Shown here in pieces: positions 1,044 to 63,294 of a stretch of 64,000 bases of DNA. Under the pieces are notes generated by a model, which worked only from the letters and a program-made list of their open reading frames with translations, was not told the DNA's origin and did no database searches. Source of the DNA: a virus. Taxonomy: Duplodnaviria > Caudoviricetes. A program made the position numbers and the translations under genes. Positions within the stretch are counted from its first letter, which is position 1, and every line of letters starts with the position of its first letter. Location: positions 3,146 through 67,145 of the IMG/VR virus record IMGVR_UViG_3300027533_000001; one strand, 5' to 3'.

Positions 1044-1409
1044 ATGCAATCCCTATCTCTCGCCTACTACCAGCGGGTCATGCTGTGGAATATGATCGGC
1101 AACTACAGCGCCCCGAATCTCAAGGAAGCCTCGGTCTACTTACGTATCATTGAGAAAATCCGCCTCAGCGACATCGAGCAGGTGGAAACCGAGTTCACCT
1201 CCAACGGTAACCAGTACGGGTGGAAGTTACCCGCGCCCAGTTATGGCAACTGCGTCGTGGACCTGGAAAACGAGGAGGCCAAGGCCCTCGCAACCGCGAT
1301 TGAGTCAGCGACACCAGTGCGCGTCATCGACGCCGAGTGGCTATCCAACATGGTGGCCGAGTTGCGCCACCCCGTGCTGGAGTTAGTCACTAACGCCCCG
1401 TCAAATTGA
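1044..1409 (+). CDS. Hypothetical protein
   Basis: ATG at 1044 just after the previous stop (MQSLSLAYYQ...). The longer 885 start overlaps the upstream gene. Confidence 0.7.
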   Translation: MQSLSLAYYQRVMLWNMIGNYSAPNLKEASVYLRIIEKIRLSDIEQVETEFTSNGNQYGWKLPAPSYGNCVVDLENEEAKALATAIESATPVRVIDAEWLSNMVAELRHPVLELVTNAPSN

Positions 1410-1441
1410 AACGTTACAATATCCACCGTCTCACTTTGTCA

Positions 1442-1471
1442 TTGACATCCGGTGTCACCTTGGGGTACTCT
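1442..1471 (+). promoter_or_regulatory. Sigma70-like promoter with a palindrome over the -35 box
   Basis: TTGACA-18-TACTCT, followed by GAGGAG and ATG at 1494. TGACA-N5-TGTCA overlaps the -35. Confidence 0.55.
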
Positions 1472-1493
1472 ACAGCCTAGAGGAGTACCACAC

Positions 1494-1943
1494 ATGCCCA
1501 CCAGCACGATGGACATGAACGAACGTACACTATATCTCGGCCTCAAGCCCAAGGGGACCAAGGCCGAGGTGTACAGCAACCAGCGGCGCGAGGCCAAGCG
1601 CGCCTCTGCCAGCAATGCGTCCAACGGGATGCGAATCACCGACAAGGAGAACCTTGCCACCCGGACCGACAAGGTCCACGAAGCCCTGATGGAGGAAGCC
1701 CGTGCACAAGCCAAGAGCAAGACCGCCAAGAATGGAGTTTCCGGTGGTGTCAAAGGTGAATGTTGTCCCACCGGGGCGTATGAGTACTGCGAAATCGAAG
1801 CCCTTACCCCCACCCACGTCGCCTACAAGCAAGGCCCCGACCTCTTCGGGCGCACCTATATGTACGACGTCGGCACCGGGGAAGTAGAACTCGGTCCCCG
1901 CATGGTGGTTCACCAGGAGTTGGTATTCGGAAAGGACGGTTAG
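1494..1943 (+). CDS. Hypothetical protein (charged N-terminus, small beta-rich C-terminal domain)
   Basis: RBS GAGGAG precedes ATG 1494. The stop codon lies inside the palindrome at 1939. Confidence 0.7.
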   Translation: MPTSTMDMNERTLYLGLKPKGTKAEVYSNQRREAKRASASNASNGMRITDKENLATRTDKVHEALMEEARAQAKSKTAKNGVSGGVKGECCPTGAYEYCEIEALTPTHVAYKQGPDLFGRTYMYDVGTGEVELGPRMVVHQELVFGKDG

Positions 1944-1951
1944 TCACTAAC

Positions 1952-2089
1952 ATGCCGCTCAAAAAGGGGTCATCCCCGAAGACGATCTCCAAGAACATCC
2001 GTACCGAGATGGCCGCTGGGAAACCGGTGAAACAAGCAGCGGCCATCGCCTACAACGTTGCTGGCAAGGGCAAGCGCGGCAAGAAATAG
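1952..2089 (+). CDS. Small basic phage protein (MPLKKG... family), not in the ORF track
   Basis: My translation: MPLKKGSSPKTISKNIRTEMAAGKPVKQAAAIAYNVAGKGKRGKK. It resembles a recurrent small phage protein of unknown function. Confidence 0.75.
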   Translation: MPLKKGSSPKTISKNIRTEMAAGKPVKQAAAIAYNVAGKGKRGKK

Positions 2090-2107
2090 CTGATATCCTA
2101 TGTTGCG

Positions 2108-2764
2108 ATGGCACTAAAACTTCGCAATAATAGGTCACAGGCGGGTCCATCTCCGAACGGGAAAGCCACGGCAACTGCGGTCAACGGCATCGACCATCCC
2201 ATTGACAGCATCCCTCCTGGCCCCGTATGGACCCGCCTGATTGACGACTTTACCGCAGCGTACCCACCATCCAGCGACAACGTTGACGAGTACATTGCCG
2301 CCGTCGCAATCCGCTTTGCCATCCCAGAGGCCGACCTCTCCACCTACCTACGATCCCGCATACGTCGCGGCCATCTCATTGCCAGGGCCACGATGGAGAG
2401 GGCCATGTACGTCAAGGCCCAGGAGGCCGCGGCCCTGGTGGGTGTGCGCATTGCCAAAGCCTTCGCCGTCATTGACGACGGCATGAACGCCGAGAGGGTC
2501 ACCTACGACCGCGACGGCAACCCCCACTTCACTCCCGATCACCGCACCCGCATCACTGCCGCCGCCAAGTTACTCGACACCCTCGGTGCCAACCACCCGT
2601 CAAAAGCTGTTGTCGAGCACGAGATTGGTGATAAGTTGGCCGCGCTATCCACAGACGAGTTACGCCTACGTCTCGTGGAACTAGTACAACATGCCGGTGG
2701 GACATTACGCGCATCCGGAGTGAAAGGTATAATTGACATTACACATTCGCCAGTTAGTGACTAA
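2108..2764 (+). CDS. terS: Putative terminase small subunit
   Basis: Lies immediately upstream of TerL. Helical C-terminus (RITAAAKLLDTLG...LSTDELRLRL) is typical of TerS. Confidence 0.6.
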   Translation: MALKLRNNRSQAGPSPNGKATATAVNGIDHPIDSIPPGPVWTRLIDDFTAAYPPSSDNVDEYIAAVAIRFAIPEADLSTYLRSRIRRGHLIARATMERAMYVKAQEAAALVGVRIAKAFAVIDDGMNAERVTYDRDGNPHFTPDHRTRITAAAKLLDTLGANHPSKAVVEHEIGDKLAALSTDELRLRLVELVQHAGGTLRASGVKGIIDITHSPVSD

Positions 2765-2766
2765 CC

Positions 2767-4596
2767 GTGATGTCTACCGCACCTACTCAATTTATCCCAC
2801 TCCCCCACCTCGACGACGTCCGTCTCGCCAGCGAGATCGCCGAACTCACCGACGAACTCATCTACCGCGAATCCATCGACAACACCGCCAGGAGTGCAAT
2901 GTATTGGCTCCGTCACGGCACCCGCACGGTGGATGAGCAGGACGCCAACAGTCGTAAGCCCTTCCCCGCCTCCCCCTATTTTGACTACATCGCCGAGGAC
3001 ATCATGGTGCGGCCACCCCAAGGCGAGTCCATCATCCACGCCACTTACAAATCCCGCACCACCATGATGAGTTGGACCGCAGCAGGTCTAGCCGCCCACA
3101 TGATGGCGACGCAACCGGACACCCGTGTCATTGTCCAATCCGCCGACCAGCCCCGTGCCGCCAAGATCATCGAGAAGATCAAAGTTCTCCTCATGAACAG
3201 TACCGATCGTCTCCGTGGTAAATGGCTTGGCGACCTCACCCTGGACCTCTTCTCCCAGTCCTACGCCGAGTGCAACCTCCCCAATGGCTCCAGTGCCGCC
3301 GCCTTCGCCTCTGGCAGTGACAAGATCCGCTTCGAGCACGGCACCGTGTACATCTTCGACGAAGCATCCCTCGAAGACGAGTTACTCGAATGCGTCACCA
3401 ACGCTCTCGCCGCCAAGACCCCCTACATCTGGCTCATCGCCACCGCGAAGCCGGGTCCATTGAATGAAATCTGGAAGGAATGCAAGCAGATCCCCTGGAG
3501 TTATAACCCCCTCCTCCACCAGGACCTCTACGCCTACACCCACCTATTTGACCGGGGTAGCCTCGCCGACGTGGGCCTAAGTGGTCTCCAGGTACCCGTC
3601 CCCGGTGGCCTCAAGGGCGATGTGAGCGGCCCAATCCCCGGCCTCACCAAGCACCTCTCGCCGCAGGGCTGGGTGTTCATTCGCGTCCACTACTCCTGCG
3701 ACCCATCCATGCGCGACCCGGTCAAACTCAAGCGCGTCGCCAAGGTCTTCGGCGGCATGGGGTCGCCCATGTGGAAGCGCGAGATGGAAATCGACGCCGA
3801 AGCCCTCGGCGGTGCCCTAGTCCACCCGAAATACAATGAGCAAATCCACGTCATCCCCGACCGCGACATCCCATCCTACGGGTGTCTATACATGTCCATT
3901 GATCCTCATCCACGCACCGAACACGCGGCCCTTTGGATGCTGGTTACTAGAGACTACGACTTCTACTTTTACCGCGAATCCTGGCCCAGTAACGTTTACG
4001 GCACTGGACGGCGTCTCCGAGATGAAGATGAATGTAACCGTTATACTGTCCGTACATACGCAGAGTATATAGCTTTTGTCGAGGGCAACGAGATCGTCGC
4101 CACCAGCCCCGGCACCCCCTATGAAATGTACCAGTACACTCATCGCGATGGTGGCGAGAGGATCGTATCTCGTCTTATGGATCAGGCAGGCAAGGGGTTT
4201 CGCATCTCTGGCGAGGGCACCCCGGACCTATTCATCTATGACGAGTACCGCAAGTATGGGATCTATTGCGCCGACCCGCGTAAGTCACATGCGGTTGGTA
4301 ATGATAAAATCGACGAGCTACTGGAACCCAAGCCCTGGCGTCATACTACTCGACCGCGTCTCTTCATCGCCGAATCCCTACTGGAACTCCGCGCTGAGTT
4401 TCGCAATCATCGCTACGCCACGACGTCGACCTCCCTATCCAAGGATCTCAACCAGCGGGTATCGCAGTTCCGCACCCACATGCTGGACAACTGCCGCTAC
4501 CTCCTCAGTGGTAACATATTCTACACCGAGATGATGGCATCGCCGCGCTACGTCATCTCCAACCAGTTCACCGCCCCCGTGGGTGTTAGTCACTAA
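2767..4596 (+). CDS. terL: Terminase large subunit
   Basis: ATPase motifs YKSRTTMMSW and YIFDEAS; RNase H-like nuclease motifs MSIDPHPRT and HMLDNCRY; position upstream of portal. Confidence 0.9.
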   Translation: MMSTAPTQFIPLPHLDDVRLASEIAELTDELIYRESIDNTARSAMYWLRHGTRTVDEQDANSRKPFPASPYFDYIAEDIMVRPPQGESIIHATYKSRTTMMSWTAAGLAAHMMATQPDTRVIVQSADQPRAAKIIEKIKVLLMNSTDRLRGKWLGDLTLDLFSQSYAECNLPNGSSAAAFASGSDKIRFEHGTVYIFDEASLEDELLECVTNALAAKTPYIWLIATAKPGPLNEIWKECKQIPWSYNPLLHQDLYAYTHLFDRGSLADVGLSGLQVPVPGGLKGDVSGPIPGLTKHLSPQGWVFIRVHYSCDPSMRDPVKLKRVAKVFGGMGSPMWKREMEIDAEALGGALVHPKYNEQIHVIPDRDIPSYGCLYMSIDPHPRTEHAALWMLVTRDYDFYFYRESWPSNVYGTGRRLRDEDECNRYTVRTYAEYIAFVEGNEIVATSPGTPYEMYQYTHRDGGERIVSRLMDQAGKGFRISGEGTPDLFIYDEYRKYGIYCADPRKSHAVGNDKIDELLEPKPWRHTTRPRLFIAESLLELRAEFRNHRYATTSTSLSKDLNQRVSQFRTHMLDNCRYLLSGNIFYTEMMASPRYVISNQFTAPVGVSH

Positions 4597-4605
4597 CAAG
4601 GAGAC

Positions 4606-7129: not shown

Positions 7130-7181
7130 TCGTGTTACAGTAATCCCTGTTAGTAACTAACCCCAGGAGAACAGACCACTT

Positions 7182-8423
7182 ATGGCAATGCAAACCTTCG
7201 GCAATCCCACCGGCACCATCACCATGGATGAGATCAAGCAGGCCGGTAGCGACGAAACCAACATCATGCAGGACCCCAGCGAGGAGTCCACCGGCACCAC
7301 CAGCGACACTGACGAGGCCACAGGTGAACCCAGCGAGGCTGACGAACCGGTTGAGACTGAGGAGTCGGCAGCAGCAGCACCCGCCGATGACCAACGGGCC
7401 ACCATCGCCGATGAACTCGGTTACGACCCGGCCAACCTCACCCCCAAGCAGGCCCAGATAGTCAACGAGGTGATCGCCCAGCTGGCCGAGAGCGACACCC
7501 CCGCCGCCACCACAGCCGACCCCGAGGCCAACCTCACCGAGATCGAACGCGAGGTACGCGCAGCCAAGGCCACCAGGGCCAGTGCCAGTGCCAGTGAACT
7601 TCCCCCTACCCCACCCCCGCGCCAAGCCACCACCCCCGCCGACGCCGACCCCATCGTGCTCGACCCCGCGCAACACTACACCGCGGAGGCCCAACTCTAC
7701 AGTGACTCGATGGATGCGCGTCTCAGCGAACCGCAGCGGCGGCGTGCCTTCGAAGAACTACGTGAACACCGCCGCTACGAGTTTGCCAAAGACCTTGTCT
7801 ACAACCTCAAATCCCCCGTCGTCCTGCAGTATCTACGTGACCAGTTACTCGCTGATGTCGAACCCAAGTTGGCCCAATTCGACGACTTGAATCGTAGTGC
7901 CTCTCAATATCGCAGTAGACAATCCGCCGAACGTTCTGCTATAGTGCAACTCAGCAAGTTGGACAAAACCGACCCTGACATCGCCGAGTTTGTCAAGCCT
8001 TCCAAGGACGGCAACTCCACGTATATGCAGGTAATGCGGTCGAGTCCGGCCATTGCCGCCAGAGTCAATCGTCTAGGAGAGAACCCCGATTACAGTGATC
8101 TCCCTGCCGACCGCCGGGCCGTCCTGCACGAGATAGATCGCATCCGTCTCGCCCACGACCTCGCCCCGCGCAGTACTAAGGGCAATGCCAATGCGAGTGT
8201 GAGGGTGGCTAAGGTGAAAGCCGCCGCAGCGTTAGTAAAGCGTGGGACTACGGTATCCACTGCCGCTAAGGCCGCCGCCGCCAGTATCATAGCCAAACGA
8301 GCCGCAGGCGCAGCCAATGGTGGGGGTGTCGCCTCCCGTGGCAATGGCCAACGCCGCTTCGAGAACCCCGACGCCGAGAGGTTGCGCATCGCCGCCAACA
8401 AGTCGACCAGTATTTTTGGTTAG
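7182..8423 (+). CDS. Capsid scaffolding protein
   Basis: Acidic disordered N-terminus, helical core and basic C-terminus; located between portal and capsid; RBS AGGAGA. Confidence 0.75.
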   Translation: MAMQTFGNPTGTITMDEIKQAGSDETNIMQDPSEESTGTTSDTDEATGEPSEADEPVETEESAAAAPADDQRATIADELGYDPANLTPKQAQIVNEVIAQLAESDTPAATTADPEANLTEIEREVRAAKATRASASASELPPTPPPRQATTPADADPIVLDPAQHYTAEAQLYSDSMDARLSEPQRRRAFEELREHRRYEFAKDLVYNLKSPVVLQYLRDQLLADVEPKLAQFDDLNRSASQYRSRQSAERSAIVQLSKLDKTDPDIAEFVKPSKDGNSTYMQVMRSSPAIAARVNRLGENPDYSDLPADRRAVLHEIDRIRLAHDLAPRSTKGNANASVRVAKVKAAAALVKRGTTVSTAAKAAAASIIAKRAAGAANGGGVASRGNGQRRFENPDAERLRIAANKSTSIFG

Positions 8424-8466
8424 TAACTAACCGCCACTATTTCTCACTACAAGGGAGTCTCTCGCC

Positions 8467-9825: not shown

Positions 9826-9892
9826 TACAGTGTTACGTCCACCGCATGCATCGCATTGTTAGTCACTAACTTCCAAAGGAGTCCCGCACCGC

Positions 9893-11419: not shown

Positions 11420-11442
11420 GTGACAGTTAGTAACTAACCACT

Positions 11443-13721: not shown

Positions 13722-13739
13722 CAGTTAGTCACTAACAAC

Positions 13740-14378
13740 ATGACCATCAGCCAGCGGGGGCAGGTCGAACGCCAGCTAGCCGAGTTGGACCGCGCCACCC
13801 GCCTGTCCCGCCTCGCCCCCGCCCCGCCACGTGCAGTAAAAGGCGCAGGCGGGATATTGAGTTGGAACGCCCCCCATCCCAGTAGTCCCGGGGTCTACAC
13901 TCACTTCCGGGTCTATGCCAACGGCGACGGTGACGACAAGCTGGTACGCCAACTCCCCGCTGACCAGCTATTCCTCAGTGACGGCCTCACCGGCGACAGC
14001 ATCTTTGTATCAACTTTCAATGCCACCACTGGGGCCGAATCATCCCGCATCCCCATGGTGGGGACACTCGCCGCCGCTGTCGCACCCCCAGTGACTAGTG
14101 CCGACAGCGACATCTACCCGTATCTATTGACTAGTACTGGCATCACCCTCATCACCTACGCTGCGCCTGCCAAGGACGGCGACTTCCTAACTGTCGACAT
14201 CCGCATCCCACTAGGCGTGCCGCCCACCAATATATACTGGATCGAGTGGGGCGGGACGTTCGATCTCGACGTGCCCAACGGGTTGAACGACGTACCCGGG
14301 GCGCGGAATCTATTCTTTTTCACATCAATAGGACTAAAATGGACCATGCTAAGTTATCGTGGATATGTGCCGGAATAG
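13740..14378 (+). CDS. Hypothetical tail-region protein
   Basis: 212-aa ORF right after a palindrome; Fn3-like segment (ILSWNAP...THFRVY). Confidence 0.6.
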   Translation: MTISQRGQVERQLAELDRATRLSRLAPAPPRAVKGAGGILSWNAPHPSSPGVYTHFRVYANGDGDDKLVRQLPADQLFLSDGLTGDSIFVSTFNATTGAESSRIPMVGTLAAAVAPPVTSADSDIYPYLLTSTGITLITYAAPAKDGDFLTVDIRIPLGVPPTNIYWIEWGGTFDLDVPNGLNDVPGARNLFFFTSIGLKWTMLSYRGYVPE

Positions 14379-16681: not shown

Positions 16682-16707
16682 TTACTAACCACAAGGAGAA
16701 CCACCGC

Positions 16708-17082: not shown

Positions 17083-17142
17083 CGGTTAGTGACTAACTAG
17101 TACCCGTTAGTATATACTTACCCTCTAGGAGTATCCCAACCT

Positions 17143-18753: not shown

Positions 18754-18791
18754 TGTTAGTTACTAACAGGGGTACAATAGGAGCCACCGCC

Positions 18792-27399: not shown

Positions 27400-27437
27400 C
27401 GCCCGGATGGTAAACTGACCGGTTAGTGACTAACAGA

Positions 27438-38935: not shown

Positions 38936-38962
38936 GGTTCGTTCTCCTTGTTAGTTACTAAC

Positions 38963-44168: not shown

Positions 44169-44474
44169 TTACTTTACGTGGTTAGTCACTAACGTGTGAC
44201 ATTTTGGGCAACGCTCGTCCACTAGTACCAGTACGTGGCAGTGCCGTATGACTATCGGTGGTATTGTCGTTGCCACTATCTGCCCGATGCACGACACCCC
44301 CTCGGCGACGTGTTCGGGGTTGGTGTGGTATTCATTACACTTCGCATCCAACCACCTCTCGGCGTCCTCCCGGTGACTAAACGGTGACGACTTGCCAATG
44401 CCCATGGGTTTCTCGTCACCACGTACTGCGGCCTGTTTCGATATCGCTCTCCAGTAGGCGATGTAGCTAGGCAT
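44169..44474 (-). CDS. Hypothetical protein
   Basis: 101 aa, coupled to the helicase stop; C-terminal CPKC. Confidence 0.6.
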   Translation of the reverse strand: MPSYIAYWRAISKQAAVRGDEKPMGIGKSSPFSHREDAERWLDAKCNEYHTNPEHVAEGVSCIGQIVATTIPPIVIRHCHVLVLVDERCPKCHTLVTNHVK

Positions 44475-46074: not shown

Positions 46075-46076
46075 GG

Positions 46077-47944: not shown

Positions 47945-48071
47945 TGATTGGTTCTCCTGAGTTAGTAACTAACAACCGGGGCAGGGTACCGCACTGTCCG
48001 TCTGTGCCATACCCCACCCCGGTGCCACCCCACCCCGCTGTCTAGGCCAGGGTGGGTGAGCCGGTGCTACA

Positions 48072-49304: not shown

Positions 49305-49337
49305 AACGATTATCTATTCTCCTTGATTGGTTAGTTA

Positions 49338-49562
49338 CTAACTGCGGCGGCGTCGCCTCTTGCTACGTCCCGCCCGTTTCCTCAGCTGAGTCATCGCTGC
49401 CTTGTCTATGACAGTGAGTAGTTCATCCATGGACAGGCCCATGGCTGCGGAGAGTTTACCTAGTACTGTTACGCTAGGTCTACTGCCCTCGTTCAATATG
49501 CGGTAGAGGTGGCGTGTTGAGATGCCCACCTCAGCGGCGAGGGTTTCATATTGGTGCGCCAC
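49338..49562 (-). CDS. XRE-family HTH regulator (Cro/CI-like)
   Basis: LAAEVGISTRHLYRILNEGSRPSVTVLGKLSAAMGLSMDEL is a canonical HTH_XRE. Confidence 0.85.
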   Translation of the reverse strand: MAHQYETLAAEVGISTRHLYRILNEGSRPSVTVLGKLSAAMGLSMDELLTVIDKAAMTQLRKRAGRSKRRRRRS

Positions 49563-49568
49563 TACATG

Positions 49569-49597
49569 ATGGTACTACGATTGACGTGGCGTGTCAA
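49569..49597 (-). promoter_or_regulatory. Sigma70-like promoter of the XRE gene with a palindrome over the -35 box
   Basis: TTGACA-17-TACCAT; TTGACACGCCACGTCAA overlaps the -35; the GTG start follows 6 nt after the -10. Confidence 0.75.
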
Positions 49598-49663
49598 CCA
49601 CTGAATGAAAAATAAAATCTCCCTTCTATATACGGGCGCGTGCGCGAGGCGGCGAGTTGGTGA

Positions 49664-51475
49664 CTAACCGCCAGCCGACACCTCCATCGTGAGTTCCAGC
49701 CACCGTGCCTCCAGTACCTGGGGTACCGCCACCTCCTTGCCCTTCTTGGTAATGAACGGCACGAAGTACAGTGCACCCTTGGCACGGGTGAGCATGACGT
49801 TGAGCACGTTGGACTCTTGCATTGTATCCTCGTCATTGCGCCCCGCCATGCCCAGCCGGTCGGGCCTCAAGAGTACCAATCTATTGTCGGGGGTGTCAAC
49901 CTCAAGACCTTTGAACTTGTGACCAGTGCTCAATGTTACCTTGCCATTGCGTGCGCCGTCGCCGAAGACAAAGCGTATTGTATTCTTGATCTTACCCGCA
50001 TCCATCCCTTCCATTGCGAGTATGTTCAAGCAGTCGTATTGATCCTGGAGTGTAGCCAATCGCCGCTCGGCATCGTCACCCTCCATCAACAGTGGCCGTC
50101 GCTTCTCCATGTACCAGTCACGCAGCGACAGGCCAAACGACGAGGCATCCCCGGCCCAGTCCTTGCCGTTCACCTCATCGACCAAGTCGCACAGCTTGTC
50201 GCCTATGTCCCGCCCCTTGATCATGCAGGGGATGGACTTGGACAGTAACCGGTATGCCAGTGCCACTAGGTCTGCGTTGTTCCTGCAGAGCACCACGTCA
50301 CCGGGCTTGAGCCAGCCCACCAGTTGGCCATCATCCACTGTACCCAGTGCCCCCTTGGCAGTACCGGGCAGGCACTCGAAGTCAGGGACAATGGCCTGTG
50401 TCAAGCGTACTACCATCTCAGAGCATCGCCTCGTCTGCGTGAGTGGCAGTACCGTCAGGCCCCGGTCATCTGTGCCCCGGAGGAGTACCTCGCCGTTGTC
50501 CATGGCACGGGTATCGGCTCCGCGGAATCCAAAGATCGCCTGTCTCTCATCCCCTACCACCACCACCCGTGAGCCAGCGACGATGAGCTTCCTCACCATC
50601 TCGGCCTGTGGTTGGTTCGTATCCTGGTACTCATCGACGAAGACCAGTGACGGTGCAGTATCCAACTGTGCCCTGGTCTCGGCCTGCCACCAGAGTTGGT
50701 CATCAAACCCAATGCCCCACTTGCGTAGATCCAGTGACATGACGAGCAGTTCACGCAGTGCCGCACACACCTCGTCTAGTGTGCCGTTGTCCAGCGTCAC
50801 ATCATAGCGGTCACACAGGGCCTTGACATTGGCATCTGTTGGCGTGCGCCACTCGTTCTTGCAATACCCCAGCAGGCGGCGAAGGTTCACACGCATCTTG
50901 CGTACCCGTGCCTTGGTCAGCTGGTCGTCGTTGGTGTTGGCCTTGATACCCAGTGCATCGAGCATGGCCCAGATGCCGCCAGCGTTTGATTTGCCAAGCT
51001 CTATGAGGCGTCCAATGTCCCGCCCCTCGACCCCGTTATCCCTCATGAACTCAATCCCAAGCTGGTGATAGGACAGTGCACTGTACGATGGGGCTTGACG
51101 TCCCATTGCCCTGGCCAGGAGTACCAGCCATGCGATGCACTCATTTATCAGCGTCGTCTTGCCCGTACCCGCACGCGCACGCACCATAATGTGATGCGAG
51201 TTGGTCACTAACTCCATGAGTACTGCGAGTTGCTGGCCGGTGAGTTGCAGTCTCGGCCTGTCCATGAGGGTTAGTAACTTCTCCCTCTCCTCATCCCTCG
51301 CGTCTGCGCCGAATGCCACATACCGTATCGAGGTGATGCCCGGTATAGACGGGTGCATCGACTGCATCAGTGAGTCAAGCATAGTCTCTGGACAGTGACC
51401 ACCGTGCTCCGCCGGTCGGTCGATCAGTCCAGTTGTGATTGGTTGTTGTCTAGTGTTGTTTAGTTTCAATGCCAT
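49664..51475 (-). CDS. UvrD/Rep-family SF1 helicase
   Basis: RAGTGKTT, VDEYQDTN, VGDERQAIFGFRGAD, LTQTRRC, LCRNNA, HKFKGLE and MLTRAK. Confidence 0.92.
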   Translation of the reverse strand: MALKLNNTRQQPITTGLIDRPAEHGGHCPETMLDSLMQSMHPSIPGITSIRYVAFGADARDEEREKLLTLMDRPRLQLTGQQLAVLMELVTNSHHIMVRARAGTGKTTLINECIAWLVLLARAMGRQAPSYSALSYHQLGIEFMRDNGVEGRDIGRLIELGKSNAGGIWAMLDALGIKANTNDDQLTKARVRKMRVNLRRLLGYCKNEWRTPTDANVKALCDRYDVTLDNGTLDEVCAALRELLVMSLDLRKWGIGFDDQLWWQAETRAQLDTAPSLVFVDEYQDTNQPQAEMVRKLIVAGSRVVVVGDERQAIFGFRGADTRAMDNGEVLLRGTDDRGLTVLPLTQTRRCSEMVVRLTQAIVPDFECLPGTAKGALGTVDDGQLVGWLKPGDVVLCRNNADLVALAYRLLSKSIPCMIKGRDIGDKLCDLVDEVNGKDWAGDASSFGLSLRDWYMEKRRPLLMEGDDAERRLATLQDQYDCLNILAMEGMDAGKIKNTIRFVFGDGARNGKVTLSTGHKFKGLEVDTPDNRLVLLRPDRLGMAGRNDEDTMQESNVLNVMLTRAKGALYFVPFITKKGKEVAVPQVLEARWLELTMEVSAGG

Positions 51476-52443: not shown

Positions 52444-52444
52444 G

Positions 52445-53683
52445 TTAGTCACTAACTCCTTGCTGTAGTATCGGTCGCAATTCCTCAGCCAGTATGTCAT
52501 CCTCCCGTGTGTCCATCTGGCGTAGCCGTGCCGCGTGCTCCATGAACACGGGCTTGAATGCCTCGATTGTGGTACGCAATAGAGTATGACACCCTATCAC
52601 TACCTCGGTCTGGTTGATGTACTGCAACTGGTACACCCCAACCTTGGGACCGGGGTTCTCCCAGGTGTAGATGAGATCCACGCCTGTCGCCCATACCCTC
52701 TCGCACAGGTCGAGCAGACGTTTCGCCGCCCGTATCCCAACCCTTGCCCCGCGTGACGTCTCCACCTCGTTGCCACTGATACGCAACAGGGTGATCTTCA
52801 TCGCCTCGTTAGTTACCCAGTAGGGTACCGGTCCAGTCCAGTCGATGAACTTCCCGGTCGTGGTACCCCCATCCTTCCATGCCTGGGTGATCTGGGCAAT
52901 GCGATCTGGTGTCCAGTACTCCCTCTCCTTCTCCTCCTTTGCCTTGCTCTCGGCATAGCGTGCCTCGTCCCGCCTGCGCCTCTCGGCCCATGACCGGCGA
53001 CCGAAGGCACCGTGCTCACTGACCCGTGCCTCATCCACCTCCCTCCACCTGTCACTATATACCTGGGCCACCTCCAACTCAGCGTCGGTCCACCTGCCAT
53101 TGATCAGGGCCATGCGGTACACCCGGAGTTCCGGCACTGCCCCCATCATGGACCCACTGTCATACCCACTGCCGCCCGTGCCGCCCAGCAGCATCTCGAT
53201 CTGGCGCAATGTAGTTTCCCGCTCATCGGCCTCGGCTTGGTGGCTGGTCATGGTGATGTACCGCTTGGCTTTCATCTTGCCCAGCTTGGCATCATCCCTG
53301 CCACACTCACCCCAGTGGTACACCATGCGCCACCCCAGGTTGCGTAGTATCTGCATGTCATCACCCTTGGTGACCCAGTACATGTTGTATCCCATGACAT
53401 GCTTGGATATGCGTACTGCGTGATGCTGGGCAGTGGGCATGCCGCGCCGTATCTCACCGGGTATCCAGTGCGGGGAGACGCGGGACCGGTAGGGTTTGTC
53501 CACGTGATCCGCGAACAGGGTGATGAGTACCCCGCCCACATCAAGGTGCAGCCCTACGAGTGAGCCGTCGTAGAGTATAGCCTTGCCGTTGTTGGATACG
53601 GCAAGGTTACCAGAGCGTAGATACTCTGTCACCCCCCGGTTGCACCACTGGTGCAGTAAGTCTGCTTGCGTTAGTCTAGCCAT
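52445..53683 (-). CDS. Hypothetical phage protein
   Basis: 412 aa; GGAGG RBS; C-terminal ETSRGARV...VIGCH segment; stop inside the palindrome. Confidence 0.75.
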   Translation of the reverse strand: MARLTQADLLHQWCNRGVTEYLRSGNLAVSNNGKAILYDGSLVGLHLDVGGVLITLFADHVDKPYRSRVSPHWIPGEIRRGMPTAQHHAVRISKHVMGYNMYWVTKGDDMQILRNLGWRMVYHWGECGRDDAKLGKMKAKRYITMTSHQAEADERETTLRQIEMLLGGTGGSGYDSGSMMGAVPELRVYRMALINGRWTDAELEVAQVYSDRWREVDEARVSEHGAFGRRSWAERRRRDEARYAESKAKEEKEREYWTPDRIAQITQAWKDGGTTTGKFIDWTGPVPYWVTNEAMKITLLRISGNEVETSRGARVGIRAAKRLLDLCERVWATGVDLIYTWENPGPKVGVYQLQYINQTEVVIGCHTLLRTTIEAFKPVFMEHAARLRQMDTREDDILAEELRPILQQGVSD

Positions 53684-53753
53684 AGTCGAACCTCCACCAC
53701 ACTGGATAGGTAGTTGGTTACTAACTATCCAGGTGGTCAGTGCTCAGCCTATG

Positions 53754-54417: not shown

Positions 54418-54439
54418 GTTGTTTCTCCTTGGTTAGTTA

Positions 54440-54610
54440 CTAACGTTTCAAAAACAGTTGGCCAATCTCTACCCCATCGAAGTAGACAGTGACCAGCACC
54501 TCGTCAGACGGGCCAAGCGACGGGAGGTAGTACTCGTGGAAGTCCCGTTCGCTTGACTCGTAGGACTGGATGACCAGCCCGTTGCGCTTGATTGTGTATC
54601 GCAGCCTCAT
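54440..54610 (-). CDS. Small hypothetical protein, not in the ORF track
   Basis: MRLRYTIKRNGLVIQSYESS...; RBS AAAGGAG; stop inside the palindrome. Confidence 0.6.
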   Translation of the reverse strand: MRLRYTIKRNGLVIQSYESSERDFHEYYLPSLGPSDEVLVTVYFDGVEIGQLFLKR

Positions 54611-55083: not shown

Positions 55084-55166
55084 TGCTGTTCTCCTTCCAT
55101 CCAAGTGCATGATCCAGCCACCGGGTTAGTGACTAACTCATGCACTTGATGACAGTAGACTAGCCT

Positions 55167-57236: not shown

Positions 57237-57357
57237 GTGATGGTTCTCCTGTCTGTCGCGTCTGGTAGTCCAGAAACACGAATAGCCAGCCTAGACAATG
57301 CCTAGACTGGCTATTAGCGGGGCGTGTTTCCGGCACACGCCCAAGCCGCTTGGCGAA

Positions 57358-57711
57358 CTAGTCCTTGTCGCTCTTGTTTTTCAAGAGCTTGTCATTGTCC
57401 ACGAGGAATTTCTCGATGGACTTGGCGAACTTGAGCAGGCGAACCCATTGCGACTTGTACAACGTGAACGGGAATCGGCCCAAGCCATAGACCGACAATG
57501 CGCCTTTCAGAGACACTTGCATTGTCAGCGGTACTTCCACGACGGGCTTGACGGGAGCCGTAGCGAGCTTCGCGTTTTCGGCTTTCAGACGGGCTACCTC
57601 GGCTGCAAGCGGAGCCGTGGATTGCGCGACGGCTTGCGAGACAGCTTGGGCGATGATCGCCTGAATGTCAACTCCGTTGATGGGAGTGGTCACGGTCTTG
57701 TTGATTGCCAT
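57358..57711 (-). CDS. Conserved hypothetical protein (first gene of the leftward arm)
   Basis: RBS AAAGGTAG; short coiled coil followed by VSLKGALSVYGLGRFPFTLYKSQW. Confidence 0.75.
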   Translation of the reverse strand: MAINKTVTTPINGVDIQAIIAQAVSQAVAQSTAPLAAEVARLKAENAKLATAPVKPVVEVPLTMQVSLKGALSVYGLGRFPFTLYKSQWVRLLKFAKSIEKFLVDNDKLLKNKSDKD

Positions 57712-58894
57712 AGTCTAATGTCTACCTTTCGAATCGCTACCAGTATCTCTGGCAGCTATGGCGAGACACACGTATCGTATATGTCTCGCCATAGCTGTAC
57801 CGCCAGCATAGCTAGTCACTTGACGGATTGGATAACCTTGTCTCGAAACCCAATTTTTAGACACAACTCTCGTGGAGTTAGCGTGTTCGTTAGTAACTAA
57901 CTATCTGGCGGTATAGCCGATTGCACTGGTACTACATTGCTACCAGCGTATGGTAGGCCATCTTGGCTATCCAGCACGCCTACCATGTTTTCCGCCTATA
58001 ACCCTAGTCTCATCTATCACGCCTACCAGTGGTCAATACCCACGCTGGACTTGTTAGGGACTTGTTTCTAGCACGGCATAGCATAGCTAGGGTTCATGAG
58101 AATAAATTCTAGATCCTAGCCAATGTTTAGCGGCCGATTCAGCGGATTGCTTCCAGTGGTCAATTGAACTGATACCCACGCTGGACTTTCCACGCTGCCG
58201 GAGTCGGTTTTCCCCGCTATGCAAACATGCGATAAACTGACGTATCGTTATGGCAACCATTAACTTTTACCGGACCTTTAACGTTTCCCAACGTTACTCT
58301 ACTAATGGGCAAGTGAGTTTAAGATATTGGCTTATGTCTTACTTCGCTGGTACTCGTTTCCCCTAACCATTCTGGCCTTTAATGGCCTACACTGCATCCG
58401 CTAGTGTGGTTATCTACCAGGGTACTCCGCTACAGCAATAGCATGTGCTATCTATCCGAGTCCGGTATAACATGTCAAAGATCGTTTCGATCCCGTCAAT
58501 TCGAGTGGTCACGTTCGTGAGAACTTCGCGGGGTATTAGGTTGCGGCTACTTTCCCATATGAGCTTTCGCCGAGTGGACTTTCGTCCTAAGCTTCGCTCT
58601 CTGCATGGGAGCTTTCGCCCCGCCCCGCCCCGCCCCGCCTCGAATATCAAAGATCGAAGTCCAACTATATGCAATCCCATGGTATGGCACAAGCGAAATT
58701 TGTATGCATAGCGGCTAGCCTATAGGAAACAAAGGTTGAAAATAAATATTGTTATCCATGTCTACATTGAGGCGTAGAAAAGGCGAAAATGTAATCGCCC
58801 TTTGTTATCAATGCCTTGCACTGGTTTCGCCATCTATTCCCCTAGTCTATGGCGTATAGGCTATAGGACATTGCCATAGAATCATTGGGTTAGC

Positions 58895-59036
58895 GGCTCC
58901 CGGCTCCCGGCTCACATATATATGGGACTCCCGGCTCCGCCCCGCCTAAACTCCCGGCTCCCGGCTCCGCCTGTTAGTGACTAACTCCCGGCTCCCGGCT
59001 CCGCCTGATAGGCTCCCGGCTAGGCTCCCGGCTCCG
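58895..59036 (+). repeat. CTCCCGG heptamer repeat cluster
   Basis: Nine exact CTCCCGG copies plus CTCCG variants, interrupted by one 13-bp palindrome at 58973. Confidence 0.9.
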
Positions 59037-59047
59037 CTATAGGTAAT

Positions 59048-59071
59048 GTCTACGTCTACGTCTACGTCTAT
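59048..59071 (+). repeat. GTCTAC tandem repeat (3 exact plus GTCTAT)
   Basis: Read directly from the sequence. Confidence 0.9.
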
Positions 59072-59540
59072 GGCAATGACTCGCGCGAGATGCTCCCCTA
59101 CCCCCTGACTCGCGCGGGGGGCGGGCCGGTTGGGTCCCATGCGACGTTCTCGACGAGACCAAAATTGGCACTTTTAGGGCATAAAAAAGTATGCTATACT
59201 GAAGAAAAACAGTTAGTTACTAACCAGAAAAGGCGAAAATCAGGCGAAAACCGGTTAGTGACTAACAAAATGGCGAATATATGGCGAAAATGGCCCAGGA
59301 CAGCGCAAAACTGGGGTCCCACGGGGGGGGGTACGGGGGTATGGTGGATTTACGGCCTGCGCCAACGTCGACACAATTGAGATTGAGGCAAATTCATGAA
59401 GTTTTGTACTTTCGACAGCAACTTTCGCAATAAATGTCATGTTATCACCAACTTACCGTCATTTTCACCCTCATTCCCGGTGATATACACATAATTATTA
59501 GAAGTAACTATACTATACTGTACTTTGCCGGAACCCCAAA

Positions 59541-60515
59541 ATGACCCACCTCGAAAAGTTAGCCAAGGGCACCATCGCCATCGACCCCAGTAGGCTCATA
59601 CTGGAGCTTGGCGGGGGGTACACGCTGGAAAACCTCACCGCCGGGTGTGCCATACTGCCTCCCCGGGATCAACTCGTCCTGCGCCATTTGCTGCGCAAAC
59701 CCATCCTTTGGCTGAAAAGCCGGGGGTTAGTCACTAAGGATGAGTTCGCCGCACTCTGGCAGTTCGCGACCACTACCACCACCACCGACCCAGTCTCCCC
59801 ATTGAGTAGAGCGAGACTCGAATACCACCTCTCGCACCTCAACCGGTCCAACCACTACCACGCCGTTCGCTGTAACGCCCTCCTCATGTTGGCACTAGGT
59901 CTAGGTATCCACCCGCGCCACGCCTACGCACTCAAGGTCCAGGACGTGAAGGCCATACGTGCACTGTTATTGAAACACAACTGCTACACCCGCTGGGCCT
60001 GGGCCTATATTGAGAAGCTGATGGTTAATCGACGCATCCACATCAAGCCATACGGCTATGCCCACCAACAACTATTCATCAACCTGGACGGCACCCCGAT
60101 GGATATCGGCATGGCCCACAGCTTTGTCAACCGCTGGCCAGCTTACTATCACCTCGACTACCGCCAAGCTCTCGTTGCCCATCGCACCATGGCCGTAGAA
60201 CTCGCCGGGGTCAAGCCGCAACTCGACGCATTATATAAGGAGATATTCACCCGCAATGGAACCATTACACCCACTGTCACCCCCGCGCAACGACCGCAGC
60301 CTGCGCCAGTACTCCCGCCCCCAGACGACACCACCGCAGTCACTAACTACTGGTCCTGCACCCGCCTCACCCCCGCTCCGCGCCCACCACTTGTCAACCG
60401 CTACCGTTCCTACATCACCAACCACTGGCTCGATGCGCGACGAAATCAAGCAGTTCACCGATACCTGTCTGAGCACCGTCCCCAGCCGGTCGATAGCGAT
60501 CCTGGCCCAGCGTAG
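59541..60515 (+). CDS. Degenerate tyrosine-recombinase-like protein
   Basis: RCNALLMLALGLGIHPRHAYALKVQDV parallels Box I (R..AL..LL..TGLR.SE...L...DI) with His in place of the catalytic Arg. QLFINLDGTPM parallels the LF.N..G..L patch. Confidence 0.5.
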   Translation: MTHLEKLAKGTIAIDPSRLILELGGGYTLENLTAGCAILPPRDQLVLRHLLRKPILWLKSRGLVTKDEFAALWQFATTTTTTDPVSPLSRARLEYHLSHLNRSNHYHAVRCNALLMLALGLGIHPRHAYALKVQDVKAIRALLLKHNCYTRWAWAYIEKLMVNRRIHIKPYGYAHQQLFINLDGTPMDIGMAHSFVNRWPAYYHLDYRQALVAHRTMAVELAGVKPQLDALYKEIFTRNGTITPTVTPAQRPQPAPVLPPPDDTTAVTNYWSCTRLTPAPRPPLVNRYRSYITNHWLDARRNQAVHRYLSEHRPQPVDSDPGPA

Positions 60516-60648
60516 TGGAGTGAATGTCCAAACTATTCGGCACATGCTCAATCGCGGCAAGCTGGTCAACCTCACCACCGTGATCGCCCTTGCCAACGCC
60601 GCCAACTTACGTATCCAGTTAGTCACTACCGCCAAGGACGTCGCATAG
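60433..60648 (+). CDS. XRE-like HTH protein
   Basis: IAILAQRSGVNVQTIRHML..G...NLTTVIALANAANLRI; overlaps the tail of the upstream ORF. Confidence 0.7.
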   Translation: MRDEIKQFTDTCLSTVPSRSIAILAQRSGVNVQTIRHMLNRGKLVNLTTVIALANAANLRIQLVTTAKDVA

Positions 60649-61447: not shown

Positions 61448-61477
61448 TTGACATCACACGTCAACCCATGGTATACT
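61448..61477 (+). promoter_or_regulatory. Sigma70-like promoter with a palindrome over the -35 box
   Basis: TTGACA-18-TATACT with extended TG; TTGACATCACACGTCAA overlaps the -35. Confidence 0.7.
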
Positions 61478-61626
61478 GGTATCTAGCTGTAGTGTTCCAG
61501 TCTGAGTCTAGTTGATGCCATACGAGCCAGCAGCGTGCTGACAGTGGGAAGTTCAGTGATTGGTTCTCACCACTGTCGGCACGTCTGGTGGTGCGTTAGT
61601 TACTAACCAAGGAGAACCATTCACCC

Positions 61627-62160
61627 ATGTCGTCCCCAGCGTCCCCGTCCATTCCATCCCCACCACCTCCTGTGCCTTCGGCACCCGGTACTGGCGCTGC
61701 ACCCAACCCACCGGCTATGCGCGACCCAACCACCCTCCTGGTACGTGCATTCAAGGGCTTCCTGTACTCGCCAATAACCAAGCAGCTGTACTACACCAAT
61801 AACCGCGAAAGTGTCGGCCCATCAACCTACGAGCGCCCATGGTCGGTCAACCCCAACTACGGCTACGAGCACCCCATCTACCCACTAAACCCGGTTGACT
61901 ACTGCACCGCCGACACTGCCGACGCCGTGTTGTCATGGGCAAAGGACAACTGGCCATCCCTGGTCTTCGACATCATCGTCCCCATCCCCGAAGGCTTCGT
62001 CACCCAGGCCCAGTACTGGCTGTTAGTCACCAACCACGAGCAGTCCATCATCGAGGTCTACGGGGCTGGCCTGTGGGCATTCGACCACGACAAGGACGGC
62101 GATGCCTCTGCCACCGAGCAACGCACCGCCGAATTGAGACAGGCAGGATTCTCGGTCTAA
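61627..62160 (+). CDS. Hypothetical protein
   Basis: RBS AAGGAG just after a palindrome; Pro-rich N-terminus. Confidence 0.7.
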   Translation: MSSPASPSIPSPPPPVPSAPGTGAAPNPPAMRDPTTLLVRAFKGFLYSPITKQLYYTNNRESVGPSTYERPWSVNPNYGYEHPIYPLNPVDYCTADTADAVLSWAKDNWPSLVFDIIVPIPEGFVTQAQYWLLVTNHEQSIIEVYGAGLWAFDHDKDGDASATEQRTAELRQAGFSV

Positions 62161-62164
62161 CCCC

Positions 62165-62368
62165 ATGGAACCCATCCTCCAGTTCTTCTCCTACACCCAT
62201 CTCCCGGCCCACCTCCAACTGGTCAGCCAACCCTTCTGTGACCTAGCCAACGCCATCGTAGAGAACCTCCCGCGCAACCCGGAGCGCACCGTGGCCCTCC
62301 GCAAGTTGCTCGAATCCAAGGACGCCGCCGTGCGTGCCAAGCTCTACGTTGACCCAGTTAGTGTATAG
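62165..62368 (+). CDS. Small conserved phage helical-hairpin protein (possible Acb2/Tad1-like)
   Basis: FFSYTHLPAHLQLVSQPF...LPRNPERTVALRKLLESKDAAVRA. Confidence 0.6.
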   Translation: MEPILQFFSYTHLPAHLQLVSQPFCDLANAIVENLPRNPERTVALRKLLESKDAAVRAKLYVDPVSV

Positions 62369-62390
62369 TTAGCAAAGGAGTAACTCCCAC

Positions 62391-63173
62391 ATGTCAACCA
62401 CATCCACTACCCATACCCCGGCACCCGTTGCCACTGCCCCCACTCCCCCAGCCCCCACCAAACTCGCCCCCTGGCCAGCAGTGCGGCTCAGTGACGGCCC
62501 CGACCCCTACGCCCTCCCCGAACCCAAGGAAGGCGAGGAGATCCCCCCGGTCATGATCACGCAGGACGTCGCCGGTTCCCGCACCATCTCCACCATGTAC
62601 AAGCCCAGCGACCAGGAACCCCCGGTAGTCACTCCCCCAGGCGGCTCCACTGGCGAGACCCCGGTGACCACCACTGTCGCCATCGACGCCGCCACCATCG
62701 CTGGCCTATCCACCACCCCGAAGTTATTGGTTGCCGTACCTGCTGGCGCATCCCTGGAGTTCCAGGGAGCCACCGGCCAGTACACCTACGGCACCGCCAC
62801 CTACACCGGGTCCGGCATACTGCAGATCAAGTGTGGCGGTGTAGTCGTCTCCGATGACGTCGCGGTCACCCCCCTCACCGGCGCTGTCAGCGGCCCCATC
62901 ACCTTCACTGCCCTCCCCGGTATCGCCCTCGCCCCCGACCAGCCCATTACCTTGACTCAATCTGGTGGCTCACTCGTTGGCGGCGACGGCACCATCTCCC
63001 TCGACGTCACCACGTCCACCCACCTCCCCGACCCACCAGCTGGTGACGCTGCCAGTGCCAGTGCCTACAGTGCTGCCCCCAGTGTCCAATCCGCCTCGGC
63101 CCCACCATCCACCCTCGCCCCGCGCTCGGCCCAACCCGGCCACGCCCTCGGCATACGCAAGGGGTCGCGCTAG
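62391..63173 (+). CDS. Putative minor virion/decoration protein
   Basis: RBS AAAGGAG; Pro/Thr-rich termini around a beta-sandwich-like core (IAGLSTTPKLLVAVP...GGDGTISLDV). Confidence 0.5.
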   Translation: MSTTSTTHTPAPVATAPTPPAPTKLAPWPAVRLSDGPDPYALPEPKEGEEIPPVMITQDVAGSRTISTMYKPSDQEPPVVTPPGGSTGETPVTTTVAIDAATIAGLSTTPKLLVAVPAGASLEFQGATGQYTYGTATYTGSGILQIKCGGVVVSDDVAVTPLTGAVSGPITFTALPGIALAPDQPITLTQSGGSLVGGDGTISLDVTTSTHLPDPPAGDAASASAYSAAPSVQSASAPPSTLAPRSAQPGHALGIRKGSR

Positions 63174-63222
63174 GCAGGCATAGGCATTACCAAGTCCTAG
63201 TCTGTTGTTCATTCACTCTTAC

Positions 63223-63263
63223 GGGCGCATAGGTTTATTAGATTTTCCTATGCGCCCTTTTTT
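63223..63263 (+). terminator. Rho-independent terminator
   Basis: GGGCGCATAGG...CCTATGCGCCC followed by TTTTTT. Confidence 0.85.
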
Positions 63264-63294
63264 CGATATAATCACCCTTTGTTAGTGACTAACC

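Follow-up and report, generated by a model that had tools for sequence, protein, structure and literature searches.

Dispersed palindromes have been on record in phage genomes, without a function, since at least 2015, first in the Cluster O mycobacteriophages and later in Cluster EG. Here, we analyzed a 64,000-nucleotide stretch (the window) of the phage record IMGVR_UViG_3300027533_000001, in which a 13-bp palindrome, GTTAGTNACTAAC, recurs throughout and which also encodes an orphan protein of the ParB/Noc/KorB type. The window comprises bases 3146 to 67145 of the 67,145-bp record, and all coordinates given below are window positions.

In the Cluster O mycobacteriophages (Corndog and its relatives), more than 30 copies of a 17-bp dyad repeat with invariant arms and a variable center are found in a genome of ∼70 kb, much like the 13-mer; many are intergenic, about one-third lie inside genes, and they show neither orientation nor a link to predicted promoters (PMC4351075). 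Like the phage studied here, these phages lack an integrase and parAB but harbor an orphan ParB-like protein, and the authors predicted a dimeric DNA-binding protein for the repeats while assigning no function (PMC4351075). The 13-mer shows the same set of traits: more than 30 copies, a free center, a genome-wide distribution partly inside genes, no orientation, and positions away from promoters. The two repeats differ in architecture (7-N3-7 versus 6-N-6) as well as in sequence, host, and phage lineage. In addition, the Cluster O copies are denser toward one genome end, whereas the copies described here tile the circle under a ceiling of ∼3 kb, with ∼22% of them inside genes.

The plasmid RK2 has 12 copies of OB, the operator of the ParB-family protein KorB, compared to ∼47 copies of our palindrome. 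OB is a 13-bp 6-N-6 palindrome dispersed on an ∼60-kb IncP replicon, thus sharing the geometry of the 13-mer, and KorB clamps load at OB and slide up to 1.5 kb (PMC11790492). An initial annotation of the window, made from the sequence alone, had likened the 13-mer to this operator. The likeness is limited to this geometry and to 8 of 12 positions identical to the OB core (PMC11790492), which falls short of the OB sequence itself; a half-site match of 4 out of 6 has an ∼4% chance, and we treat the likeness as a lead rather than homology. On RK2, the small helix-turn-helix (HTH) repressor KorA acts together with KorB at promoters, and the phage carries its ParB-type gene and a small XRE gene in one operon. 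RK2 is, however, a plasmid, and the phage has no IncC/ParA.

Repressor sites that occur in many copies in short intergenic gaps over an entire phage genome, and silence it, are known from Cluster A mycobacteriophages (stoperators) and from Streptomyces phage phiC31 (conserved inverted repeats). Stoperators, described in PMC4351075, are asymmetric and oriented with transcription, whereas the 13-mer is an unoriented palindrome that also occurs in genes. The phages of both systems are temperate and encode an immunity repressor, whereas no integrase or ParA was found in our genome; the 13-mer copies are therefore not stoperators of the Cluster A type. Noc of Bacillus, an orphan paralogue of ParB, recognizes scattered palindromes and not a centromere, which resembles the candidate role of the phage protein, although Noc is a host chromosomal, membrane-binding protein. 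Its sites, ∼70 over 4 Mb, are far sparser than the phage lattice. Microbacterium Cluster EG phages have 18-bp inverted repeats in short gaps, typically 14 to 22 bp before starts and kept despite divergence of the flanks, but only 8 to 10 copies are present, at one genome end and with none reported in genes (PMC7302621). The start-associated sequences of Cluster K lie at a fixed 3 to 8 bp before starts and include the ribosome-binding site; the 13-mer does neither and contains no Shine-Dalgarno sequence.

Our literature search found no paper tying such repeats to a ParB-type protein. What is new here is a whole-genome lattice in which selection writes the word into long genes and holds the spacing under ∼3 kb, in a phage that encodes a ParB of canonical architecture (N-domain and HTH, no ParA) in an operon with a small repressor.

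A single palindrome dispersed over a complete phage genome

The ends of the record share a 127-bp overlap, giving a true length of ∼67,018 bp, and the record is a complete, circularly assembled phage genome of ∼67.0 kb without attached host DNA. This overlap falls within a collagen-like Gly-X-Y repeat gene (1,157 amino acids), and the "direct terminal repeat" call may reflect an assembly overlap of a circular or permuted genome. The GC content is 0.595, in agreement with the ∼60% given by the initial annotation. No match among cultured phages was obtained by blastn or by tblastn with ParB and XRE, and PolA gave tblastn matches of at most ∼33% identity. A search by terminase for prophage or metagenome-assembled copies in 185,579 species genomes was also negative. 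In IMG/VR, we found 16 loci with a terminase 85 to 100% identical to that of the focal genome. Two complete relatives, hereafter g1 and g2, with ∼75% DNA identity to the focal genome where alignable, were used for comparison. A phage protein encoded at 32744-33445 has a PEP-CTERM sorting domain (TIGR02595, 24.8 bits versus a cutoff of 16), which, going by the sequence match, implies a Gram-negative host with an exosortase and not an actinobacterium.

The 13-mer occurs in 38 exact copies between 1382 and 63293, compared to a mean of 0.01 copies in 100 dinucleotide-preserving shuffles. Eight more copies have one mismatch (21632, 36164, 49656, 51200, 53713, 59726, 60618, and 62022), and one further copy lies within the first 3.1 kb of the record, outside the window. 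These counts and positions reproduce those first reported, as does the presence of copies in late, replication, early, and non-coding regions, which in our map are the structural and replication blocks, the right-hand block, and a 1.6-kb non-coding stretch. A blind count of palindromes with 5- to 7-bp arms and gaps of 0 to 8 bp returned the 13-mer as the sole overrepresented one in the focal genome, g1, and g2, with every other such palindrome having no more than 5 copies. The signal ends at 6-N-6 with no wider extension, and isolated half-sites occur in about the number expected by chance. In sense orientation, the central base is C in 66 copies, G in 51, A in 15, and T in 13, so that the word has no orientation.

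The word is kept in relatives. The g1 genome has 43 exact copies (48 with at most one mismatch), g2 has 27 (50 with at most one mismatch), and all 16 of the terminase-related IMG/VR loci carry it, which answers the suggestion that the motif be sought in related phages. Most alignable copies of the focal genome have a counterpart at the orthologous place. In these orthologous copies the 12 fixed bases are kept while the flanks are 68 to 88% identical and the central base varies among all four letters; the arms being invariant, no compensatory change was found. Searching JGI metagenomes for two copies 5 to 35 bp apart recovered 12 further contigs of the same phage family, each with the tandem pair upstream of a homologue of gene 59541-60515. 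Six other contigs of lower GC content, 0.35 to 0.44 (L045, L048, L051, L063, L071, and L086), were set aside as unrelated satellites in which the 13-mer arises by chance in 30- to 34-bp tandem arrays.

Six of the eight one-mismatch copies share the symmetric change A4G/T10C, as first noticed, from which a GTTRGT/ACYAAC binding consensus had been proposed. Such variants do exist, but a part of them can be explained by coding. Among the 14 T10C variants of the three genomes, 2 delete an in-frame stop and 4 are synonymous changes from ACT to ACC, the preferred Thr codon; the remaining 8 have no spanning same-strand open reading frame (ORF) of at least 300 nucleotides (nt), and coding gives no account of them.

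A perfect palindrome with a free center and no orientation points to a dimeric protein on duplex DNA as its reader, and we consider it likely that the copies are protein-binding sites on DNA.

Placement and spacing of the copies

The 13-mer holds TAG and TAA in two of the three frames on both strands, and the sole frame open inside genes, xxG TTA GTN ACT AAC, encodes Leu-Val-Thr-Asn (LVTN). In the three genomes, 85 of 109 exact copies (∼78%) have no spanning ORF, a preference for gene junctions that can be explained by these stop codons; the TAG or TAA of a junction copy often doubles as the stop of the upstream gene, and ∼48% of gene junctions bear a copy. All 24 ORF-spanned exact copies are in the LVTN frame, with 17 of them deep within genes. 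LVTN occurs 9 to 10 times per proteome compared to 0.3 expected; its Leu is always written as TTA, a codon that makes up 6% of Leu codons, and its Thr mostly as ACT, which accounts for 16% of Thr codons. Since the rare TTA is used without exception, it is the DNA word that imposes the peptide and not the reverse.

Spacing was computed on the circle from all 47 focal-genome copies, exact or with a single mismatch. The mean gap is 1,426 bp and the largest is 3,303 bp, confirming the earlier statement that no gap goes beyond about 3 kb when near matches are counted. The coefficient of variation (CV) of the spacing is 0.55, whereas random placement gives 0.97, and an equally even spacing did not arise in any of 5,000 simulations; over the three genomes, the CV is 0.55 to 0.66 (versus 0.97) and the largest gap is 3.2 to 4.4 kb. 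Junction copies alone have a CV of 0.86 and a largest gap of 8.7 kb, similar to a random choice of junctions (P = 0.1), and it is the addition of the in-gene copies that brings the CV to 0.55 and the largest gap to 3.3 kb. The evenness of the lattice thus comes from the copies inside genes. These are denser in long genes: genes of 2.4 kb or longer contain 13 copies over a total of 37 kb (0.35 per kb), compared to 16 over 106 kb of shorter genes (0.15 per kb). The long genes with copies include fibre genes whose DNA is similar only in fragments, or not at all, between the focal genome, g1, and g2. Taken together, the TTA-only LVTN, the dense internal copies in long genes, and the gap ceiling establish that selection acts on the DNA word and its spacing, and not on promoters, terminators, or an RNA hairpin. 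The ceiling of ∼3 kb argues for a function on DNA with a reach of ∼1.5 kb to either side.

Promoters and terminators were examined between 44 and 64 kb. This region has 17 copies and only about three strong promoter-like sites, and the frequency of promoter-like sites in it does not exceed that in shuffled sequence. Where a −10 box is close to a copy, it may lie on either side, at distances that vary between relatives, and no copy in the region has a terminator-like hairpin. A structured RNA was rejected as well, with folding energies of −1.1 or 0 kcal/mol, no compensatory change, and no Rfam match; Rfam and tRNA scans of the phage sequence returned nothing.

The junction preference, together with what follows the copies, could suggest a signal in the transcript that serves to process mRNA, to couple translation, or to recruit a global RNA-binding regulator beside ribosome-binding sites. 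Of 145 copies, 38 are followed within ∼30 nt by a Shine-Dalgarno sequence and a start codon, and ∼30 have a start codon after 0 to 5 nt with no Shine-Dalgarno sequence, an arrangement conserved in relatives; the mismatches of one-mismatch variants also favor the 3′ half in sense orientation, 27 versus 9. A further 75 copies have no start codon nearby, with the copy-to-start distance ranging from 0 to more than 30 nt. About nine orthologous cases have the start codon 0 to 4 nt past the 13-mer and no Shine-Dalgarno sequence; in the focal genome, this holds for the starts at 11443, 13740, 29316, 35289, 46074, 52443, and 63295. The lack of a Shine-Dalgarno sequence is conserved in the orthologues of 11443, 13740, 35289, and 46074, whereas for 52443 and 63295 a relative has one instead. 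These abutting starts suggest termination-reinitiation coupling across the word. A transcript signal would, however, need no perfect palindrome with a free center, the arms are invariant and fold into a hairpin of −1.1 kcal/mol or nothing, and copies also sit at a convergent junction, in a non-coding stretch, and deep in long genes. The stop codons of the word alone explain the junction preference, and its use of TAA or TAG as a stop explains the tight coupling. We therefore attribute the junction arrangement to dense gene packing and coupled translation, do not see in it the function of the word, and regard a transcript signal as improbable.

We also considered that the copies might be recombination linkers, short identical words at module borders that aid gene shuffling among related phages. 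The ends of BLAST homology blocks fall within 15 nt of a copy in 20% of cases compared to 3% for random points, and in both genomes the borders of the large replaced fibre segments coincide exactly with copies. Nevertheless, with ∼48% of junctions carrying a copy, block ends located at junctions would match copies at least this often by chance, and block ends in fact match copies no more often than gene junctions do. A conserved island in a variable spacer can itself halt BLAST extension, 13 bp is short for homologous exchange, no tyrosine integrase or other site-specific recombinase was found in the genome, and the Cluster O repeats were not associated with rearrangements in the analysis of their authors (PMC4351075). 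Recombination linkers are thus a very improbable explanation.

A ParB-type protein and other candidate readers

In keeping with the earlier prediction of a phage ParB, the minus-strand gene at 48072-49304 encodes an orphan ParB/Noc/KorB-type protein of 410 amino acids with ParB_N and HTH domains, our best candidate for the reader of the 13-mer. It matches Pfam PF02195 ParB_N (5e-10, 39.7 bits versus a cutoff of 26.3) and the PHROG ParB-like family (5e-19), and its PDB sequence matches include Caulobacter ParB and Noc. A structural model built from a 40-sequence alignment (predicted local distance difference test [pLDDT], 78) matched Noc, ParB, and KorB in Foldseek over 200 to 256 columns with a probability of 1.0, the alignments covering the N-domain as well as the HTH DNA-binding domain. 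The closest structural match is Noc (PDB 7nfu and 7ol9), and whether searched by sequence or by structure, the protein lies closer to Noc and chromosomal ParB than to KorB. G100, R102, R103 (of the arginine box), and N139 are conserved in the alignment, and the HTH segment is invariant across the relatives that share the 13-mer. Residues 313 to 403 are confidently predicted as a helical C-terminal part, for which the matched PDB chains are truncated. The canonical HTH-plus-dimerization architecture of ParB is almost exclusive to chromosomes and plasmids according to a survey of ParB folds (PMC12704722). No AAA_31 match was found in the whole genome, so the ParA of a ParABS partition system is missing, and no LG(K/R)GL-type motif was seen in the N terminus. 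The family is isolated, with two 50%-identity clusters at E<1e-10 among 1.84 billion representatives in a HMMER search, in which the sole distant full-length homologue is P0009 (39 to 45% identical). For the gene downstream of parB, a protein atlas search gave viral hypothetical proteins only.

Directly upstream of parB lies a minus-strand gene for a 74-amino-acid XRE-type HTH protein (49338-49562; Pfam HTH_3, 5e-9), the first gene of the pair. The two are separated only by a 13-mer copy that supplies the stop of xre. The XRE protein is 92% identical in g1 and 72% in g2, with an invariant HTH. Among the binding candidates named in the initial annotation were XRE proteins, of which we found this one, as well as a tandem-HTH protein and a degenerate recombinase, neither of which is supported by Pfam, NCBIfam, or PHROGs. 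The promoter-like site of the pair (49569-49597, minus strand) agrees with 10 of 12 consensus positions and has its −35 box inside a 17-bp palindrome. This belongs to a second palindrome family, TTGAC-N7-GTCA(A/C), with three copies (1442-1458, 49581-49597, and 61448-61464), overlapping the −35 box at two or more of the three (checked for xre-parB and for 61448, ahead of gene 61627), an arrangement that can be likened to KorA at RK2 promoters. The copy at xre is conserved in g1 and g2. In all three genomes, the GTG start of xre lies ∼7 nt past the −10 box, at about the predicted transcript start, which suggests that xre (49338-49597, minus strand) is translated from an mRNA with little or no leader.

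The geometry of the half-sites and the order of the genes lead us to infer that the 13-mer belongs to ParB and the 17-mer to the XRE protein. The 13-mer has the adjacent 6-N-6 half-sites of the KorB operator, whereas the half-sites of the 17-bp palindrome, which is probably the operator of the XRE protein, are spaced by a helical turn, as suits a dimer of the XRE type. In the mechanism that we propose, one sequence-specific protein with two-fold symmetry would read the 13-mer on double-stranded DNA, and its sites would be maintained at a density of at least one per ∼3 kb. They would sit where the cost is least, at junctions where TAG or TAA of the word can serve as a stop, and in genes too long for junction spacing the word would be written inside as Leu-Val-Thr-Asn. 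The reader would be the ParA-less protein encoded at 48072-49304, presumably cotranscribed with the small XRE repressor. By analogy with KorB on RK2, its dimers may load at each site and slide or spread across the 1 to 2 kb between sites, covering the whole chromosome, for which global silencing, compaction or condensate formation, and protection are candidate purposes; segregation was also among the roles suggested by the initial annotation. We judge the chances that the phage ParB-type protein is the reader to be about even, and the same balanced odds apply to the overall description of a lattice of candidate sites for a dimeric protein with ParB as the most likely reader.

Several observations weigh against this reading. 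In the phage protein, Arg replaces the catalytic Glu of the GERRxRA box, and box III (ENxQR) is without its Gln and Arg; CTP use by the phage ParB is therefore uncertain. The locus of P0009 was sought in viral and JGI metagenome contigs and not found. Many phages encode ParB-fold proteins (PMC12704722), mostly without any known lattice. The link between the 13-mer and ParB is circumstantial, and several HTH families can, judging from the loci described below, read the identical word. Moreover, many copies directly precede ribosome-binding sites, which together with the 3′ skew of the one-mismatch variants implies that transcript-level or coding effects also shape the sites.

Instead of ParB, the 74-amino-acid XRE repressor or some phage protein without annotation might read the sites, or the phage might borrow or titrate a DNA-binding protein of its host, for example a TetR-family protein of the SlmA kind. 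The xre gene with its invariant HTH is directly upstream of parB, and most early phage proteins obtain no family assignment. The SlmA site GTGAGTACTCAC has a half-site similar to that of the 13-mer, although it lacks the central base. The identical 13-mer is also found as a pair of copies 5 to 20 bp apart in four actinobacterial genomes (L031, L033, L035, and L038), and in at least two of these (L035 and L038), the pair is directly upstream of genes for TetR_N regulators with an MftR-type C-domain, where it is likely the operator of one TetR subfamily. However, each of these genomes has only the two paired copies, no TetR_N domain was found in the phage genome, and the PEP-CTERM gene indicates a Gram-negative host rather than an actinobacterium; for the latter two reasons, we read the shared word as convergence. 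As for the XRE protein, its own promoter bears the 17-bp palindrome, which has the usual XRE geometry and is the more natural XRE operator. On balance, another reader than ParB appears doubtful, if worth serious consideration.

That an enzyme modifies or nicks the DNA at the copies, in the manner of T5-type nicks or ParB-assisted thymine oxidation, seems to us hardly credible. Known nick consensus sequences are asymmetric and strand specific, and in a palindrome nicks would fall on both strands and so sever the genome. The 13-mer is T-rich within a GC-rich genome, and phage ParB-like proteins can activate thymine dioxygenases, but those described have no DNA-binding domain (PMC13229309), while the ParB studied here has one. 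In addition, we found no Tet/JBP dioxygenase, N6/N4 methylase, or C5 methylase domain in the genome.

With ParB as the preferred reader, a "repeat of unknown function" becomes a testable hypothesis, namely, that ParB-type clamps tile a viral chromosome. If true, CTP-clamp biology would extend from chromosomes and plasmids to phages, with a sequence rule readable from the genome, the spacing being roughly equal to the sliding range. In its most far-reaching form, a ParB clamp loaded at ∼47 evenly spaced sites would coat the entire chromosome of a phage that is not evidently temperate, with the XRE protein and the 17-bp operators as KorA-like clamp stops, making up a virus-wide silencing or condensate system of the plasmid style in which the ∼3-kb ceiling reflects the sliding range of the clamp. 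This full picture is tentative, and we consider it less likely than not.

Individual copies and neighboring features

The copies are given here without strand and are exact unless stated otherwise; remarks on g1 and g2 refer to orthologous positions. The first (1382-1394) lies in the last 27 nt of ORF 885-1409 in the LVTN frame, with an orthologous copy in g1 and a variant in g2. TAG of the copy at 1939-1951 is the stop of 1452-1943, and an ATG abuts it. At 2753-2765, TAA is the stop of 2108-2764, the terminase start follows 1 to 4 nt on, and a TATAAT box upstream is kept in relatives, while the terminase gene (2767-4596) ends on TAA of the copy at 4585-4597, directly followed by a Shine-Dalgarno sequence. 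The copies at 7149-7161 and 9858-9870 are intergenic, with starts 20 nt (7182) and 22 nt (9893) further on and, for the former, a conserved −10-like box 6 to 8 nt upstream. TAG of 8419-8431 is the stop of 7182-8423, ahead of the capsid gene. The copy at 11426-11438 fills the junction 11419/11443, with a start 4 nt on that lacks a Shine-Dalgarno sequence, likewise in g1 and g2, and the one at 13724-13736 is at a junction with an ATG 3 nt on. Depending on the gene call, 14389-14401 lies at the junction after 13740-14378 or in the 5′ part of ORF 14246-16681, whose stop is TAG of the copy at 16677-16689; the latter is followed by a Shine-Dalgarno sequence and marks the right edge of a fibre segment replaced in g1. 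Stop 17082 lies 2 nt before 17085-17097, and 18755-18767 is at the junction between 18753 and the next gene.

Deep in ORF 20570-23131 lie a T10C variant in frame 0 (21632-21644), which thereby loses the in-frame stop, and an exact copy read as LVTN (22693-22705). LVTN is also encoded by the copies deep in the 1,403-amino-acid ORF 23188-27399 (25005-25017) and within the 1,107-amino-acid ORF 29316-32639 (29681-29693). The copy at 27422-27434 is at the junction 27399/27426, and TAG of 29299-29311 is the stop of 27426-29303, with an ATG 4 nt on. Two nucleotides past stop 32639, the copy at 32642-32654 marks the right edge of a 13-kb segment replaced in g1 and has a −10-like box downstream in relatives, at a variable distance. 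The copy at 33537-33549 occupies the convergent junction of the plus- and minus-strand gene blocks, with no start codon near. At 35290-35302, the ATG of a minus-strand gene abuts the copy, likewise in g1 and g2. The one-mismatch copy at 36164-36176, in frame 0 of the small ORF 35910-36209, loses its stop by the change and is exact in g1, and the copy at 37333-37345, deep in the UDG-exonuclease ORF 36946-38415 as LVTN, is kept in g1 and a variant in g2.

Further on, 38950-38962 is at a junction with a minus-strand Shine-Dalgarno sequence next to it, 40978-40990 is intergenic (40852/41207), and 43040-43052 is at the junction below 43062-44030 and kept in both relatives. The copy at 44181-44193 forms the last codons of 44169-44474 (LVTN), with the −35 box of a strong promoter-like site 20 nt downstream, and the one at 46076-46088 is at a junction, with the start of a helicase gene (44467-46074) 1 nt on. 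On the two sides of parB are 47961-47973, between parB and the next gene and beside a Shine-Dalgarno sequence, and 49330-49342, the stop of the XRE gene, with the parB start 25 nt on. A second helicase gene (49664-51475) has its stop overlapped by a one-mismatch copy (49656-49668) and holds another deep in its ORF, with the synonymous ACC (51200-51212), that is exact in g1 and g2. The copy at 52444-52456 is the stop of 52445-53683 and abuts the next ATG (in g2, a Shine-Dalgarno sequence is present instead), the intergenic one-mismatch copy at 53713-53725 is exact in g1, 54432-54444 is at a junction with a Shine-Dalgarno sequence next, and 55125-55137 is at the junction 55110/55167.

TAA of 57889-57901 is the stop of 57298-57900, where a 1.6-kb non-coding stretch of lower GC content, dense in direct repeats, begins (57900-59540). 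Its repeats comprise CTCCCGGCTCCCGGCTCCGCC units, iteron-like GGCGAAAA units interleaved with two 13-mer copies, and GTCTAC in four copies, and it is probably an origin or control region. The copy at 58973-58985 lies between two 97%-identical copies of a 29-nt direct repeat. Amid the GGCGAAAA repeats, 59212-59224 is the first of a tandem pair 42 bp apart and has a TATACT box 11 nt before it; the second is 59254-59266. The adjoining gene (59541-60515), which holds a copy with a mismatch at the last base (59726-59738), has 42 to 63% amino acid identity among relatives compared to 65 to 96% for its neighbors, as expected of an initiator coevolving with iterons. A one-mismatch copy at 60618-60630 has a start (60651) 20 nt on. 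The copy at 61595-61607 is in the leader, directly ahead of the Shine-Dalgarno sequence of 61627-62160, and this ORF contains a variant with the synonymous ACC (62022-62034) that is exact in g2 and absent in g1. The last copy (63281-63293) has a TATAAT box 9 nt before it and an ATG (63295) 1 nt on.

Two further observations concern the replication genes. The family A DNA polymerase appears to be split, with the polymerase domain at 33549-35060 and a UDG-superfamily domain in the N-terminal third of 36946-38415, several small genes between them, and no annotation for the remainder of the latter ORF. The stretch 40334-40852 matches the N-terminal domain of a dATP/dGTP diphosphohydrolase, although barely above the cutoff (27.1 versus 27 bits).

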